A DNA stretch of 64,000 nt, from contig NW_027362761.1 in the NCBI RefSeq assembly GCF_046119375.1, forward strand, positions 1,163,058,001 through 1,163,122,000. Direction: 5' to 3'. This stretch comes from Phyllobates terribilis (lineage: Eukaryota). Shown here in pieces: positions 1 to 28,416 of this stretch (positions are counted from its first letter, which is position 1; the number at the start of each line of letters is the position of its first letter). The position numbers and the translations under genes are program-made. The notes below the pieces were generated by a model. It was not told where the DNA came from, searched no databases, and was given only the letters and a program-made list of their open reading frames with translations.

Positions 1-829
1 CCGGTCCGGATGCCAGCTGGATCTTTCCTGAAGAAGAGACCTGTAAAGACTGCCCAGTTCTGGTTAGCGCGGCAACGCTCTTAGTCAGTTCTTGGACCTG
101 ATGGTGCAGGTCTGTTGCCGGGTAATTGTTCAAAGCCTGCGCATCAGCTCCCACAGGCCCTGCAGACAAGGGCGCCGTCTCCTGGTGATAAGTGATAGTA
201 GGGCGCCTGTGGGTCACAGCGCCACCTGGTGCCAGTTCTCGGAGCACCCGGATGGCTCTGTCCTTGAACTGTGCAAAGTCCAGGTCAGGGTCCTGTAAGG
301 CCATTGCCCGCAACTGGGTTCGGTGGGCATTGCACAGTAGACCGTCTATAAATTGTTCGGTCAACAGCTTGTCTTCATTTCCCACGCTGTCAGGGTCTGC
401 CTGCTTAATGGCTCTCAGGGCCTCTTGTAGGTTTAGAGCATAGTCTCTTATACTTTCATGTGCCCGTTGTTTGCACCCATAAAATCTGAGCTTTATTTCG
501 GCTGAGGTGCGGGTATCAAATGTGTCTTTCAGCCGGGCTAGTATCTCTCTGACAGTCCTCTTCTTCCCAGGTGACCAGGACTTTACCTCCCTTTGGGCTG
601 CCCCGATTAACTGGGCCACCAGAATGCTCACTTTTTGCTCTTCTGTGAGGGGGTATATCTGGAAGAGGCTATCAAGTCTTTCCCTAAAGTCACTCAGGGT
701 ATGTGACTCCCCTGAGTACTGGGGTAGCCAGGTTGCCCCCGGGATATAGGGCATGGTGAATAGCATGACCGCTGCAGCGGTTGCGCTGGCGGTGGCTGTG
801 GCAGTGGAGCTCCCCTCGGTGTCCGACAT
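1..829 (-). CDS. Ty3/Gypsy retrotransposon Gag, N-terminal part, open to the window edge
   Basis: ATG at 829; hand translation gives 276 uninterrupted codons (MSDTEGSS...PYIPGATWLPQYSGESHTLSDFRERL...LLTEQFIDGL...). It lies just downstream of a PBS and LTR. It is absent from the ORF track because it has no stop inside the window. Confidence 0.8.
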   Translation of the reverse strand, partial: MSDTEGSSTATATASATAAAVMLFTMPYIPGATWLPQYSGESHTLSDFRERLDSLFQIYPLTEEQKVSILVAQLIGAAQREVKSWSPGKKRTVREILARLKDTFDTRTSAEIKLRFYGCKQRAHESIRDYALNLQEALRAIKQADPDSVGNEDKLLTEQFIDGLLCNAHRTQLRAMALQDPDLDFAQFKDRAIRVLRELAPGGAVTHRRPTITYHQETAPLSAGPVGADAQALNNYPATDLHHQVQELTKSVAALTRTGQSLQVSSSGKIQLASGP

Positions 830-1236: not shown

Positions 1237-1255
1237 AATCCTGCCGACTACGCCA
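1237..1255 (-). promoter_or_regulatory. Primer-binding site complementary to the tRNA-Ser 3' end
   Basis: Plus strand AATCCTGCCGACTACGCCA equals the 3' 19 nt of vertebrate tRNA-Ser (GTAGTCG...CCTGCCGACTACG+CCA). It sits 4 nt from the LTR end. Confidence 0.9.
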
Positions 1256-1259
1256 AAGT

Positions 1260-2320
1260 TGACGCGCTCCCTGGGTCTGTGTTGTGCAGGGGATACCCGG
1301 AGCTGGATCGCTGGGGGTTGTAGTCTCAGTGTGGCGGTGACCCGGTCCGTGCCCAGGGCGGTCAAACCAGTGGCAGTCTTAGGTAATAACAATGTCCGAC
1401 TACGCCACCCGTGGATTGCGGTCAGTGGGGACCGCCGCTGCGCTGCAGACCGCTGAGGCTGATGTTGTATGCGCAGCTAAGTATGGGATAACTCCCCACG
1501 GGAGAAGTATTGCCTCAGGGCAGCTAGTGTGGATGATGGGAGTGATGGTGTGAGCGTCCCAGTAGTAATGGTGCTGGTGCGGCGATGAAACACAGAGACG
1601 TGTGGTGCAGTTCAGGGTCTTTACTGATGGTATAAAACAGACCCTCCCGGGAGTACTGGTTAGCAGTAGGGGTCTGGTCAGTCTGTGAGCAAGCAGGATC
1701 TCCCCTGGCCAGGTGGAGTTGTAGGCCTCCCCGACTATCTGCACTCTTTCCTGGCTACCTTGCTCTATGCGGGTAGAAGTAGCCCACGTTCCTGAGTATA
1801 CCGTGTGGTGCTCACCCGTATGGCCGGTGACTTGGGGCCTTCCGTTAGCCTCCGCTTCACGATGGCGGTGCTGGTCCCTTGCTTGTGACCGTGCCTCCGG
1901 GCTTCTAAGGCCAGAGGACATGGAATCCCCTGCCGGTTGGATTCTGCTGCTGGACCTGGATGTCCTCACAGCCTCGGACTCCGTGTCCGGGTTTAGTGTC
2001 TTCAGCCAAGGCGAGCTATCTAGCTTCCAGCCTCTGGCACTCACTCCTGCTCCTACAGCGCTCCTGTTGTCACTTTCCCTGTGTCTGCTGTCCTCCAGAC
2101 CTGACTGCGTCTCTGTCTGGGACTTCACTCCTCTGCTTGTTCTGCAGGCCCTGTCTGTCTTAATCCCGCCCCAGACCCAGTTTATAAGGGCAGATTCCTC
2201 CCCTCCCAGGTCTGGGTGGGCCGTGTTGCATGCTTAGGGCTCCTGACCAGAGAAACCTCCCACTTGCTCTCAGACATAATATTTCTATTACTGTGGTAAC
2301 CAGACCCCTGGGGTGCCACA
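1260..2320 (-). repeat. 5' LTR of the Gypsy element (1061 bp)
   Basis: TG...CA termini (TGACGCGCTCCC...GGGGTGCCACA). About 300 bp at the left end and the last 29 bp align with the solo LTR at 26100-27290. Confidence 0.85.
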
Positions 2321-4013
2321 TTATCATCCCTAATCTTCATACATGGCTCGACAACAGAGAGAACCTGGATTAAACCCAACTGTTTAGCCATGGCAATTGC
2401 CACCAAGAAGACTGTTTTCAGAGTCAAGTTCTTTATTTTTAATTCATGAACTGGGCCGAAGGCAGGTTTGCAAGGGACTTTCAGGACAAGACTAAGTCTC
2501 TGGATTGCCGTGACAAATCTGATTATCCAGGGATGCGAGGACAATGATGTATCGAAGAAAGCACTTAGTGCCGCAATCTGTACCTTCAAGGTACTAGGTC
2601 TAAGACCTGTGTCAAATCCCGCCTGCAAGAAATCAAGGATCGCAGGGATGTCTGGTTGAAAGATGTCTACCATCCTGTTGAACTGACAAAAGGTCCTCCA
2701 GACTTTTTTATATATGGCTTGGGTTACAGGTTTTCTACTAGCCTGCATAATCTGGATCACTCTGGCGGATAAGCCTTTGGTCTGCAGGAGCCAGGCTGAA
2801 AGCTGGAGTTGTTGAAGATTCCAATGCAACAGTGGAACTTGCGCCAGAAGATCTTCCTGTAGTGGTAAAATGATTGGGTCTTCTAACACTACATGACATA
2901 GAAGGGAGAACCAACTCCTTCTTGGCCAGAATGGGACAATTGCTATGACTGTCGCCCGATCTTCCTGAATCTTCCGCAGCACTCTCGGAATTAGGGGAAC
3001 AGGTGGGAAGGCATATGCTAGACCCTCAATACTGTGAGAGAGCATCCACTGCCAGAGGATGATCTCCTGGGTCGCGAGAGAAGAAAGATGTCATCTTCGC
3101 ATTCGTTCTGGATGCAAACAGGTCTAGGTGAGGCTGACCCCATCTGCGAGTCAGTTGTTGGAACACCTCTTCGTTCAGTTCCCATTCCGAAGCCTTCATT
3201 TGACGCCTGCTGAGGTAGTCTGCCTCTTGATTGTCGGATCCCCGAAGGCAAACTGCTGAAATGGAGCTCACTATCTTCTCTATGCCTAAGATTATCCTGT
3301 TGGCCAGAGACTGGAGAAGTAGATGTCTTGGTCCGCCCTGAAGTCTGATGAAGGAGACTGCCATGATGTTGCCATGACAGATCTTCACATGTCTGTCTCT
3401 CAAGACAGCCCGGCTTCTCTGTAGGGCTTCCCAAATCGCCTGTAGTTCCCGAAAATTCGATTATCGGGTCCGAATCTCTGTGGACCATGTTCCTTAAAGA
3501 TAACAATCTCCCACTCGAGCTCTCCATCCTGAGAGACCTGCGTCTGTGGTCACTAAAAGACAAGGTTCCAGAATCCACTGCACTCCCTTCTGTAGATTCT
3601 TCTGGTCGAACCACCAGTGTAGATAGTCCTGGGTGTCTCTGAACAAAGACATCTTCATGTCTAGGTAATTCTGATGTCTGTCTGTCACTTCCAGGATGGA
3701 TTTCTGTAGAGGCCTGGAATGGAACTGGCTCCATCTGACGCAGGTGATGCATGACGTCATGATTCCCAAAATACAAATTTCCTTTCGAATCTAAGGTTTT
3801 TTCTCTCTTGCAAAATAACGAATCCTTTGTGGGATTGAGAGCATCCTGTCTTCCGGGAGATAAGACATTCGCATTCGGGAGTCGAGATAGACTCCCAGGA
3901 AGATGCGTGAAGTACTTGGGACAAGACTCGATTTTTCTTTGTTCACAATCAAACCCAGGCTGGTTAATGTCTGTAGGACAAATTCCAGATGTTGAGTCAT
4001 ACATAGAGGGCAT
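2321..4013 (-). pseudogene. DIRS ORF3: overlapping N-terminal frame plus tyrosine recombinase (frameshifted, truncated)
   Basis: ORF 3018-4013 overlaps RT in another frame. YR motifs (GLSARVIQIMQASRKPVT, ILDFLQAG, LRPSTLKVQIAALS, LKTVFLVAIA) occur in ORF 2182-3045. Confidence 0.75.
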
Positions 4014-4600
4014 CCAGCCACCAACAGAAAGTCGTCCAAGTACAGAATGATGGTAATATCCCTGAGTCGGATATAGGCTACCACCTCTGCCATGATCTTC
4101 TTAAAGATTCTGGGAGCAGATGACAGGACAAAGGGAAGACATTGGAATTGGTAGTGTAGAATCTGACTGCCTGATGGTAGTGCAAGCCTCAGATATGGCT
4201 GACTTGAGGAATGTATCGGCAGGTGGTAATATACATCCCTGAGGTCCAGGGTGCACATTACCGCATCTGTGTCTATTAGAGGAATGGCTGATCTCACTGA
4301 TTCCATGCGGAATTTTTTGTAGCGGACCCATAGGTTTAGGGGTTTCAGATTGATAATTGAACGGAACTCCCCTGATGGTTTTTTTTACTGAAAACAGAGA
4401 GGAGTAATGGCCCCAATGTTGGTCGTGTTCTGGAATTGGAACAATAACCTTCTGTTGTAGAAGCTTCTCTATGACTGCATGTAGGCGGGAAAGTGAGGTA
4501 GGGGAACCCTTTGTCAGGCGGAATTTTTGAGGGGGATTTTGAGAAAACTCTATCCTGTAACCCTGCGCTATAGTTGTTAATATCCAGGGATTTTGAGTGA
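2790..4600 (-). pseudogene. DIRS pol: reverse transcriptase, RNase H and methyltransferase-like domain
   Basis: ORFs 3791-4306 (LDLRDVYYH, LPFVLSSAPRIF, YLDD), 3494-3769 (TTDAGLSGW) and 3026-3403 (DNQEADYLSR, DLFAS) are all one frame broken by nonsense codons. YAFPP follows after a frameshift. Confidence 0.85.
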
Positions 4601-6020
4601 CCCGATGCCAACTGTTTTTGAAAAACCTTAATCGCCCCCCTACTCTGACATAGTCATTGCCGTTTTGAACGGGAGCTAGTACTGAGCTGGTATTTTTTAT
4701 CTTTGTTCCCCTTATTAAAACTCCAGCTCGTGGACCCCCCTTTTTTCTGAGTGTTATGTTTTCGGAAGGGGAAAGGTTTGCGAAAGGGCTGCTCCTTCTT
4801 TTTCTCCTCAGGGAAGCCCTTCTTTTTATCGGACGCTTTTTCTAGTATGTCATCTAACACTGGTCCGAATACTCTGAGCCCTGAAAATGGAATGTAGCAC
4901 AGCTTGTTCTTAGAAGCGGTATCCCCAGACCATGTCTTTAACCAAACAGCTCTTTGGGCTGAGTTGGAAAGCGCATTATTTATGGCAGCAAATCTGACCC
5001 ATTCTGCCGAAGCGTCGGCCATAAAATTCGTTGTAATTTTTAATAGGGGCAATGATTGAAGGAGAGATTCCCTCAGGGTGCCATCCCGTAGGTGACCCTC
5101 TAGCTCCTCTAGCCAGACTTTCATGGATCTGGCAATAGATGTAGCAGCGACATTAGACTTAATAACTGCCACCAAGGCTTCCCAGGCTTCCATCCACCTT
5201 TCGATCCATAGGATCTTTAAGTCCTGATGAATTCTCAAAGGGGATAGAGGTTTTCTTGACCACTGGGATGTCAATCTTAGGAATGGTGTCCCAAACATTG
5301 GTGTCTTCGGGATCAAAGGAGAGTCGGGTGCAGAAGTCTTGTGGAATAGAGAGCCTCTTCTCCGCATCCTCCCATTCCTCCAGTATCATGTCTTTCACAT
5401 GAGCATTAACAGGGAAAACCATGGAACTCTGGGTTCTAAGTCCACCAAACATCTCATCTTGAATGTTTCTGCTCTTCTCCGTCTCTTCTACCTGCATCGT
5501 GTTTCGGACGGCTCATAGAAGAATATCCATACCATCTGAGTGGAACATATACTTTTTCCGTTCCCCGCCCTGAGGTGGACTAATGGTCTCACGGTTGCCA
5601 GAGTCGCCAGATGGGTCGATTTCACCCTCAGAAGATGGTGCTATATCTTCTCTGGGTCTTTTGGGTCCCCGGACATCCAGGACCTCTGAACCTGGGGGCT
5701 GCAGAGACGTAAGAGAGGCCTGAACTTCTTCTTTGATTATATAACCCCTGGCAAAAATTATGGAATCACCGGGCTCGGAGGATGTTCATTCAGTTGTTTA
5801 AAAAAAGCAGATCACAGACATGGCACAAAACTAAAGTCATTTCAAATGGCAACTTTAGGGCTTTAAGAAACGCTAAAAGAAATCAAGATAAAAAATGTGG
5901 TACTCAGGGTAATTTTTTTCAGACCAAGCAGAGGGAAAAAATTATGGAATCACTCAATTCGGAGGAAAAAATTATGGAATCATGAAAAATAAACACACAA
6001 AAGAACACTCCAATACATCA

Positions 6021-25971: not shown

Positions 25972-28262
25972 ACAGGATGTAACTCAAGATCAGCACAGGA
26001 TCAGTAATGTAATGTATGTACACAGTGACTGCACCAGCAGAATAGTGAGTGCAGCTCTGGGGTATAATACAGGTTGTAACTCAGGATCTGTAATGTATGT
26101 GATGCGTCCCCTGGGCCGTGTGTGTTGGGGAATACCCGGAGCCGGGTCTCCATTTGATGCTGGGGGTTGTAGTCTCCGTGGCGGCGACCCGGTCCGTGCC
26201 CAGGGCGGTCAAACCAAAGGGATAGTTTATATGTTGAATGTCCGACTACGCCACCCGTGGATTGCGGTCACTGGGAACCGCCGCTGCGGGCAGACCGCTG
26301 AGGCTGATGTTGTGTTTGCAGCAGAGGGGTAGGATAACTCCCCACGGGAGGAGTATAGCCTCAGGGCAGTGAGTACAGATGATGGGGGTGATGGTGCGCG
26401 GGAGCAACAGTAATGACTCAGAGTCCAGTGATGCAGTCCAGGGTCTTTACTCAGTTTTACACTCCAAGCCACTTCTGCAGGTAATGGCTGCCCACGTCGT
26501 ACTGTGCTCACCAGGTGAGGGGCTCGGCCAACTCCCAGCTACATTTGGAATGCTTTTCAGGACCCACTTCGTGTGTCCTTTCTCTGACCTGTCGTACCCC
26601 ACAAGTGACCACGTTTCTGTCCAGCTGCCTCGGGCCTTGGCGGGCAAACGTATGTTCCGTTTCCCTGGGTCCTATGTGGTGCCTTCCTAACGGGTGTAGT
26701 GAGGGGAAGTAACACGTGCAGTGCCACGGCTTCCGGTTACTAGCTGAGGGTAGTTGCTCTCCTCCACTAGATGAGGGATCCGGTTCCCTTTCTTGGCCTG
26801 ACCCTCCTACTCTGGTAGCGGCGGGCGTACGGTGGCAACTGGCCGGTCCGCACCCCTGGGGTCCCTTCACTCCACTCCTGGAGCCTTTCCTGCTCTCCTT
26901 CTCCTCCAGGCTCAGGCCTCCTTACTGGGCACACCTCTGGAGCAGAGCTCATGCAGAGCCCCTGCTCTCCGTCACTTCTCCTCAGACTGACCACCGAACC
27001 TAAGATGGCTCCTCCCTTTTATATGCTCCTACTCAGTGCACCCAGGATCTACTCTCCCCACCCACACACTACCAGGTTCCCCCTTTCTAGGTGTTGCCTC
27101 CCCCCACTCCAGCCAGGGACAGTTGTGCTCACTCTTGGGAGCATTGTTGCCCTGTCCCCCCGGAAATGTGGTGTAATGCATGTGGGTGTTAGGGTCCTGA
27201 GCCAGTCTCCGTCCTTACCTGGAAGTGAGATATCACACCTCTGGGTGAGATGCAATACCTCTGTAGCGACCGAACCCTCGGGGCGCTACATATGTACACA
27301 GTGACTGCACCAGTAGAATAGTGAGTACAGCTCTGGAGTATAATACAGGATGTAACTCAGGATCCGTACAGGATCAGTAATGTAATATATGTACACAGTG
27401 ACTGCACAAGTAGAATAGTGAGTGCAGCTCTGGAGTATAATACAGGATGTAACTCAGGATCCGTACAGGATCAGTAATGTAATATATGTACACAGTGACT
27501 GCACAAGCAGAATAGTGAGTGCAGCTCTGGAGTATAATACAGGATGTAACTCAGGATCCGTACAGGATCAGTAATGTAATATATGTACACAGTGACTGCA
27601 CCAGCAGAATAGTGAGTGCAGCTCTGGAGTATAATACAGGATGTAACTCAGGATCAGTAATGTAATGTATGTACACAGTGACTGCACAAGCAGAATAGTG
27701 AGTGCAGCTCTGGAGTATAATACAGGATGTAACTCAGGATCAGTAATGTAATGTATGTACACAGTGACTGCACAAGCAGAATAGTGAGTGCAGCTCTGGA
27801 GTATAATACAGGATGTAACTCAGGATCAGTAATGTAATGTATGTACACAGTGACTGCACAAGCAGAATAGTGAGTGCAGCTCTGGAGTATAATACAGGAT
27901 GTAACTCAGGATCAGTAATGTAATGTATGTACACAGTGACTGCACCAGCAGAATAGTGAGTGCAGCTCTGGAGTATATTGCAGGATGTAACTCAGGATCA
28001 GTAATGTAATATATGTACACAGTGACTGCGCAAGCAGAATAGTGAGTGCAGCTCTGGAGTATAATACAGGATGTAACTCAGGATCCATACAGGATCAGTA
28101 ATGTAATGTATGTACACAGTGACTGCACCAGCAGAATAGTGAGTGCAGCTCTGGAGTATAATACAGGATGTAACTCAGGATCAGTAATGTAATGTATGTA
28201 CACAGTGACTGCACAAGCAGAATAGTGAGTGCAGCTCTGGAGTAGAATACATGATGTAACTC
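25972..28262. repeat. 86-bp satellite (some 99-bp variants), about 13 units, split by a solo LTR
   Basis: Unit TGTACACAGTGACTGCAC(C/A)AGCAGAATAGTGAGTGCAGCTCTGGAGTATAATACAGGATGTAACTCAGGATCAGTAATGTAATGTA. Confidence 0.95.
26100..27290 (-). mobile_element. Gypsy solo LTR (1191 bp) with 4-bp TSD TATG
   Basis: TG...CA ends; TATG at 26096-99 and 27291-94; homologous to LTR 1260-2320, which gives the orientation. Confidence 0.9.
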
Positions 28263-28416
28263 CTCCATAGTAGTGATGCAGGGAGATCCCCGAACCCCGC
28301 ATAACTACTACATAACGCTGCCACACATTCACTTCCATGTTCCGCTCACACAACGCCCACCCTGCCCCAGTACCAGCGGCCACTCACAGCACCACGTCCT
28401 CTCCGCCGCACGTTAC

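Follow-up and report, generated by a model that had tools for sequence, protein, structure and literature searches.

A selected, primer-matched copy of the start of the primer binding site inside the LTRs of a Ty3/Gypsy group in Phyllobates terribilis

The DNA analysed here is a stretch of 64,000 nucleotides of the Phyllobates terribilis genome (contig NW_027362761.1, positions 1,163,058,001 to 1,163,122,000), which we call the window. At its start lies the 5' part of an LTR retrotransposon on the minus strand (Table 1): the 5' LTR reads from 2320 to 1260, and is followed by a 4-nt spacer, an 18-nt primer binding site (PBS, 1255 to 1238) and a PNMA-like gag. Beyond the window the pol domains follow in the order RT, RNase H, integrase. 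The neighbouring genome stretch holds this pol and a 3' LTR that is 98.7% identical to the 5' LTR; hence the window copy is a young Ty3/Gypsy element. The group has the features of Ty3/Gypsy elements: LTRs that begin with TG and end with CA, a short target duplication, a PBS after the 5' LTR, and gag followed by RT-RNase H-integrase. Target duplications of 4 bp are present at the solo LTR in the window and at another copy (L153). The window copy itself is flanked by ATAA and ATTG, which do not make up a target duplication. The closest gag relatives with a name come from entries labelled as dendrobatid frogs.

The AGTAAA motif is conserved and lies about 215 nt upstream of the module described below, which therefore probably belongs to U5. 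Tailed genomic copies, looked for as evidence of the poly(A) site, were not found. The surroundings of the element are rich in other repeats. The solo LTR sits within an 86/97-nt tandem repeat (25972-28277), and the window is full of further satellites and MITE-like inverted repeats. Next to the Gypsy copy, at 2321-5385 on the minus strand, are disrupted reading frames in which LAP2alpha and RT domains occur together, a combination characteristic of DIRS-type elements. A second copy, from another subfamily, begins about 480 nt past the 3' LTR (L152, C1:1163049001-1163059000).

Table 1. Features of the window and their positions (all on the minus strand)
Feature	Position	Strand	Remark
Full-length Ty3/Gypsy copy, 5' LTR (TG...CA)	1260..2320	-	Copy runs off the window start
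True PBS, 18 nt, for tRNA-Ser(AGA/TGA)	1238..1255	-	4 nt after the LTR end
gag (PNMA-like)	2..829	-	Extends past the window into pol
Box complementary to the primer tRNA 5' end (nt 1-11)	1320..1335	-	5-nt bulge in the window copy
Subfamily-specific partial complement GACTGCCAC	1370..1378	-	Could mask the internal site; variable; absent in group B
Internal site, complementary to the tRNA-Ser(AGA/TGA) 3' end	1396..1407	-	12-nt match in the window copy
Predicted double-pseudoknot domain	1408..1520	-	Covariation, 55 distinct of 58 copies
Helix a	1520-1512/1459-1450	-	
Hairpin H1	1508-1491	-	Loop 1502-1496 pairs with 1414-1408
Helix b	1477-1473/1441-1437	-	
Hairpin P4	1435-1418	-	
AGTAAA, likely poly(A) signal	1620..1625	-	Position probably puts the internal site in U5
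TATAAA, likely TATA box in U3	2181..2186	-	Putative
Solo LTR, different subfamily	26100..27290	-	Target duplication TATG (4 bp)
tRNA 5'-end box, solo LTR	26169..26182	-	
Internal site, solo LTR	26242..26253	-	
Pseudoknot domain, solo LTR	26254..26366	-	

A first-pass annotation had reported a second tRNA-Ser-complementary 12-mer inside the LTR and at the matching position of the solo LTR. The repeat is real: CCGACTACGCCA has just three exact occurrences in the window, at 1244-1255 (inside the PBS), at 1396-1407 and at 26242-26253. That account captured the internal site and overlooked the pseudoknot and the tRNA 5'-end box. The conservation of the 12-mer between the two LTRs, which had been offered as evidence, does not bear the weight placed on it, because the surrounding U5 is equally well kept in both. 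The last 341 aligned columns, downstream of AGTAAA, are 82% identical (279/341; upstream it is 319/670, 48%) and contain eight identical runs of at least 12 nt. The 12-mer lies within one of these, a run of 34 nt.

The evidence for conservation comes instead from the rest of the 10.6-Gb genome. The internal 15-nt block occurs there in 220,811 exact copies, compared to 5 for a reversed control, and the PBS 16-mer of the window's type (A type) in 70,165. Among 68 PBS-anchored loci (a non-random draw from the first 100 listed on one contig), the site is present in 66, between -143 and -178; the remaining two have other DNA in place of the upstream LTR. Agreement with the PBS is 97-100% at nt 1-10, 86% at nt 11 and 31% at nt 12 (64 anchored of 68 copies). 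If a column counts as variant-free when no variant is shared by more than two of the 66 copies (36% of columns qualify), then the longest variant-free run in 300 nt of U5 measures 15 nt and the next best 6. This run consists of five bases before the site plus PBS nt 1-10, where it ends. Decay at the neutral rate and restriction to two copies, the outcome that the first-pass annotation had named as fatal to its idea, is thus not what the genome holds. The 12-mer that it proposed is indeed complementary to tRNA-Ser, family-wide and selected; the core conserved across the group is PBS nt 1-10 rather than 12 nt.

The site is not restricted to LTRs that adjoin a PBS. In the first 30 of 4,272 copies anchored on a flanking motif, the 12-mer is present in 26 and the exact 10-mer in 28, and 20 of the 30 have no PBS, being 3' or solo LTRs. 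The expectation that solo LTRs would carry the motif is therefore borne out. No subfamily has a G-U variant in nt 1-10 of the site, whereas the 5'-end box does. Copies of group B, introduced below, often show CpG decay in the site. From these comparisons and those that follow we conclude that the LTR contains a second, primer-specific version of the initial 10-13 nt of the PBS, and that it is under selection.

The site also changes with the primer. A search with a more distant gag sequence uncovered a second PBS type (group B; 8,281 exact 16-mers). Judged by the tRNA genes of the same genome, the primer of group A is tRNA-Ser(AGA/TGA) and that of group B is tRNA-Ser(CGA). Copies with an A-type PBS (n=69) have the A site in 67 cases, the B site in none and no site in two. 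For copies with a B-type PBS (n=30), 27 have the B site, at the same place in the LTR, none has the A site and three have no site. Exact B sites number 26,279 genome-wide, and in B the match is retained to nt 13 (100, 96 and 84% at nt 11, 12 and 13; 25 anchored of 30 copies). In a further A-primed family, A2 (1,158 junctions), 30 of 30 copies contain the A site. At the level of sequence, then, the internal site tracks the primer tRNA of each family.

It is inherited with the element, and not templated by the primer in each cycle: a PBS of a third type occurs in 11 copies, all scattered singles, and 10 of them keep the B-type internal site. The 18-nt complement of a canonical PBS is copied anew from the tRNA; the internal site spans 10-13 nt and stayed unchanged in those 10 of 11 copies. 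Two more distant families with a Ser(CGA) PBS, D1 and D2, lack the site in 4 of 4 and 16 of 16 copies (0/20, all old and decayed). Hence the site is dispensable in the wider clade. Both families retain the 5'-end box despite the absent site. A third primer family was considered and dropped: among 243 junctions that differ at the sixth PBS base, the 30 viewed proved to be point mutants or local duplications, except for one without a PBS. A metagenome scan for other species gave two loci (L417, L418), which matched at the zinc knuckle only.

How often the primer switched can be read from several trees. In a tree of the LTR upstream of the site plus the LTR end (60 rows), families A1 and A2 nest separately in B. 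Monophyly of A1 and A2 is rejected upstream of the site (p-AU 0.0006, 60 rows) but not between site and PBS (p-AU 0.43, 59 rows), so A2 may be a recombinant that acquired the whole block. Two independent switches, as read from a first gag tree, were not upheld: with 45 of 78 gag rows, monophyly of A is not rejected (p-AU 0.60), and the tree is compatible with one origin of A1. Considering the three data sets together, one primer switch is certain and a second is possible.

Several other features of these families were noted along the way. A strong splice-donor-like CAG|GTAAGT lies at about 1179-1189 on the plus strand, antisense to the leader, and its core is seen in 34 of 68 A1 and 7 of 30 B copies. 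Many copies measure only about 3-4 kb from LTR to LTR (L407-L416; L034-L036, L102-L103). The ten A2 copies fetched (L407-L416) gave no gag match and a single RT hit beyond the second LTR. These short copies are likely non-autonomous families that retain the whole U5 module. One and the same variant LTR turns up at intervals of 0.1-0.4 Mb on contigs C32, C53 and C501 and at C1:1075.6-1078.2 Mb, a spacing that suggests large repeats, segmental or tandem, with an element inside.

The first-pass annotation had listed a secondary priming site among its explanations and had suggested a search for shorter LTR variants ending near 1410. A productive site of this kind is not supported. Candidates for such variants were the 46 places at which the two bases following the internal CA-N are atypical; of the 30 viewed none is a short end, all being point mutants or internal deletions. 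Hence the internal site appears not to be a working alternative primer site. A canonical PBS lies just outside the LTR end and defines it, and the internal site lies 136-148 nt inside that end. Genome-wide, the internal context is fused to a full PBS only three times (two in A, one in B), against 220,811 and 26,279 sites. The partner LTRs of L153 and L346 were found and are both full length; the 3' LTR of L193 was not found over about 19.5 kb. Read-through tRNA copies also join at LTR-end-type junctions in 24 of 24 cases and at the internal site in none. Such copies, in which the PBS continues into the tRNA beyond 18 nt and past the usual stop, make up 24 of 30 loci in one set (L266-L295), some extending for at least 40 nt.

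Rare footprints of another kind do touch the site. In four events (L271; L421; L425; L422-424) a full LTR end and exactly 18 nt of tRNA complement are followed by U5 resuming after the site, as would be left by plus-strand strong-stop DNA mistakenly landing there; one subfamily-restricted search gave 5 loci with such strand-landing footprints. In L153, 18 nt were written into the internal site of the 5' LTR only, perhaps by one priming event at the site. Overall, productive priming at the internal site appears to be very rare at most. Self-priming of the Tf1 kind was discarded, since site and PBS share one orientation.

Directly before the internal site the LTR is predicted to fold into a domain in which two helices cross a third, that is, a double pseudoknot. 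Its last segment, 1414-1408, comprises the 7 nt immediately before the TGG of the site, so that the site starts flush against a pseudoknot helix (helix c, formed with the loop of H1). In an alignment of 58 copies (55 distinct), 19 of 31 pairs are compensatory and 95.5% of cells pair. On four of five measures none of 500 shuffles reaches the observed values, and 104 of 500 do so for further pair types; slid controls give 37-60%. These figures lean towards the model, because the structure was derived from the same, related sequences. Helix c has compensatory changes in 6 of 7 pairs, with 98% of cells paired. It pairs 7/7 in 26 of 30 A2 copies, none of which was used in defining the structure. 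A few copies (L196-L200) have a wholly different helix c sequence that still ends at TGG. An Rfam search returned no family at the gathering score and three weak matches far below threshold, none of them on the domain. Folding of the whole region gave z = 0.10, in a model that excludes pseudoknots. A long-range pairing of the CCACGGGT stretch with the leader was abandoned: the leader motif is absent in many subfamilies and the upstream loop covaries.

The third element of the module is the box complementary to the tRNA 5' end, which lies between the internal site and the PBS. The 5' end of the cognate tRNA pairs better with this box than that of the other tRNA-Ser in 65 of 69 A1, 28 of 30 B, 23 of 23 A2, 15 of 16 D2 and 4 of 4 D1 copies. 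In three copies (L214, L161, L375) the box reads GTGACTAC or close to it and is complementary to both tRNA-Ser 5' ends; a box of this type is possibly an intermediate of the primer switch.

Duplex energies were calculated with a nearest-neighbour model for copies with an intact 9-nt core (59 A1, 23 A2, 18 B). The internal site with its cognate tRNA gives -20 to -23 kcal/mol; the best in-cis partner reaches -13 to -14, and the other tRNA-Ser -9 to -12. The PBS duplex, at -34 to -36 kcal/mol, is about 12-15 kcal/mol stronger in the model than that of the internal site. The best in-cis partner differs from copy to copy, and in B it covers nt 11-13 in only 2 of 18 copies. Nested folding ensembles likewise reveal no consistent in-cis partner across copies, pseudoknots being outside that model. 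In nested folds the site is predicted to be mostly paired (mean unpaired 0.23 in A and 0.32 in B) and opening it costs about 7 kcal/mol; opening the end of the tRNA would cost a further 7-13 kcal/mol.

To explain why the site persists, we propose that it is a non-priming dock for the acceptor end of the primer tRNA on the genomic RNA, a reading to which we assign a probability of about 0.55. It is based on four observations: the site matches each family's own primer, it is inherited, it lies flush with a covarying helix, and there are no shortened LTRs among the candidates viewed. In such a scenario the NCCA end and the acceptor 3' strand of the tRNA would pair at the internal site and stack on the pseudoknot helix, and this stacking would block extension. 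The freed tRNA 5' strand could then pair with the box some 60-80 nt downstream. Subsequently the tRNA 3' end would be passed to the 18-nt PBS, or a second tRNA would be held at the site. The element might gain more efficient capture, packaging or unwinding of its primer. Counting against a dock are the mostly paired state of the site in nested folds, the cost of opening the tRNA end, the fact that D1 and D2 do without the site, the limit of one certain primer switch, the missing G-U variants in nt 1-10 and the frequent CpG decay of the site in group B.

A more specific version is tentative and we consider it the less probable form of the proposal. Here the whole stretch would be a U5 tRNA-capture module, in which the double pseudoknot presents UGGC and the acceptor-strand complement. 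An uncharged tRNA-Ser would dock end-on, in the manner of a T-box, and would be unzipped, held by the box and passed to the PBS.

Among the alternatives to a dock, a role at the DNA stage of strand transfer is unlikely, though less so than the others. The minus-strand copy of the site would mimic the tRNA 3' end and re-pair with the tRNA 5' strand or the PBS of the partner RNA, or the plus-strand copy would transiently dock the minus-strand copy of the PBS. Co-variation with the primer is expected here as well, and the strict Watson-Crick conservation fits: the lack of G-U variants in nt 1-10 could point to a role at the DNA level. The landing events and L153 are also evidence that plus-strand strong-stop DNA can place its 18-nt copy of the tRNA on the site. 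However, these footprints are very rare and look like errors, and the flush junction with an RNA pseudoknot is left unexplained. Somewhat less plausible again is an intramolecular RNA switch with no tRNA bound: by pairing with the 5'-end box, or with other parts of U5 that complement the PBS, the site would leave the true PBS open. The box is necessarily partly complementary to PBS nt 5-11 and co-varies with the PBS, and in folding ensembles the local partial complements of A1 subfamilies pair with either site. Yet the order of box and site is permuted, which limits simultaneous pairing to 5-6 bp. Such a switch also fits poorly with the inconsistent in-cis partners, with nt 11-13 being kept in B where a partner is mostly missing, and with D1 and D2, which have the box without the site.

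The remaining explanations fare worse. That the site really primes, yielding DNA that is abortive or acts as a helper strong-stop product and seldom integrates, we regard as improbable. The CA-N4-TGG spacing does resemble the real junction in the window's subfamily, the 18-nt tRNA copy in L153 is most simply read as one priming event, and a short end without the normal U5 terminus might fail to integrate. Against this stand the lack of short ends among the 30 candidates viewed, the mere three fused junctions, the 24 read-through copies and a GC-rich helix that begins at the first template base. A decoy or target for 3' tRNA fragments, also suggested by the first-pass annotation, is still more doubtful. 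The site is complementary to the 3' half of tRF-3 and every LTR carries it; moreover, repression by 3' tRNA fragments at 5' UTR sites can be seed-independent, according to the part of the source available (PMC12853362), so a missing seed alone does not exclude targeting. But the pairing covers only the 3' 10-13 nt, compared to 18 nt at the PBS of the same RNA, the site adds a target rather than removing one, and there is no clear gain for the element. Pseudoknot and box would also be unexplained. A tRNA fragment decoy is therefore unlikely to be the reason for conservation. Least credible is the third idea of that annotation, a neutral fossil of an older LTR/PBS junction: it is ruled out as a neutral relic because the site co-switches with the primer. 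A junction-like context (CA or TCAAC before TGG) and the absence from more distant families speak for it, but the site is the most conserved U5 stretch while its flanks diverge, it matches the current primer in each family, and rewriting events are far too rare to maintain it. The fossil account is thus contradicted for maintenance and may hold for origin, for which duplication of the LTR/PBS junction is possible.

The geometry of the proposed dock recalls the bacterial T-box antiterminator, where a UGGN directly after a helix pairs with the NCCA end of the tRNA. The T-box forms four base pairs without invading the acceptor stem and serves transcriptional control. The likeness appears to be one of geometry only, an analogy and not kinship, and no T-box match was found in the Rfam search of the domain.

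Closer comparisons come from other retroelements, for which we draw on parts of the cited papers. Drosophila gypsy has two tRNA-Lys2 binding sites, of which the second, about 11 nt long, is not needed for priming (PMC1635307). Like gypsy, the element described here belongs to Ty3/Gypsy and would have a second site for its primer tRNA at which priming need not start. In gypsy, however, that site lies near the 3' end of the genome and pairs with the anticodon and TPsiC stems (PMC1635307), whereas here the second site is inside the LTR, some 150 nt upstream of the PBS, and duplicates the complement of the acceptor end. Since both complement the acceptor end, internal site and PBS would compete for the same tRNA end. 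In Ty1 and Ty3 the PBS is bipartite or multipartite: because the core PBS is short, extra segments pair with the TPsiC and D arms, and a 5' pseudoknot is needed for efficient reverse transcription of Ty1 (PMC5371799, PMC4974528). Shared with these elements are potential tRNA-RNA pairing beyond the PBS (which serves primer packaging and initiation there) and, with Ty1, a pseudoknot, here a predicted one. Unlike them, the present group combines a full 18-nt PBS with a tRNA 5'-end box, a duplicate acceptor-end site and a pseudoknot abutting that site. Extra segments complementary to the cognate tRNA are present, as in a multipartite PBS, since internal site and box are both cognate-specific. In such a PBS the segments pair separate tRNA regions, so that a single tRNA occupies all of them together. 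The box would pair a different region of the tRNA, but the internal site needs the same 3' end as the PBS. The arrangement would therefore seem to work like an extended PBS and not like a standard multipartite one. The HIV-1 PAS, 8 nt that pair with the TPsiC arm, and the avian U5-TPsiC interaction are further contacts outside the PBS (PMC3185550). Like the PAS, the internal site is a motif outside the PBS that is complementary to the primer tRNA; unlike it, it is a copy of the PBS. The same review links contacts beyond the PBS to restricted primer switching, and reports that even for HIV-1 it is disputed whether such contacts select and load the primer tRNA (PMC3185550, in the parts available).

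Within the open-access literature we found no repeated acceptor-end site inside an LTR, though subscription papers, Repbase and Dfam notes or supplements may mention one. The poison-frog genome paper describes about 1 Gb of Gypsy elements, and the term 'primer binding' is absent from the part of it available (PMC6278860).

These elements offer a natural experiment: where the primer has switched between two tRNA-Ser species, three separate motifs reflect the change in tens of thousands of copies, and one of the three is missing from sister families. They also provide short, defined RNAs for testing tRNA contact of a new type, namely an additional acceptor-end site that abuts a pseudoknot. For the genome as a whole, this means a partial complement to tRNA-Ser in more than 200,000 LTRs, among them solo LTRs, and annotation based on the PBS can misplace LTR ends in this group. 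If the tentative tRNA-capture module is true, then the clade would possess a staged device for primer loading, with three places to rewrite at each change of primer. Such a device may have contributed to the expansion of the clade to more than 200,000 LTRs.
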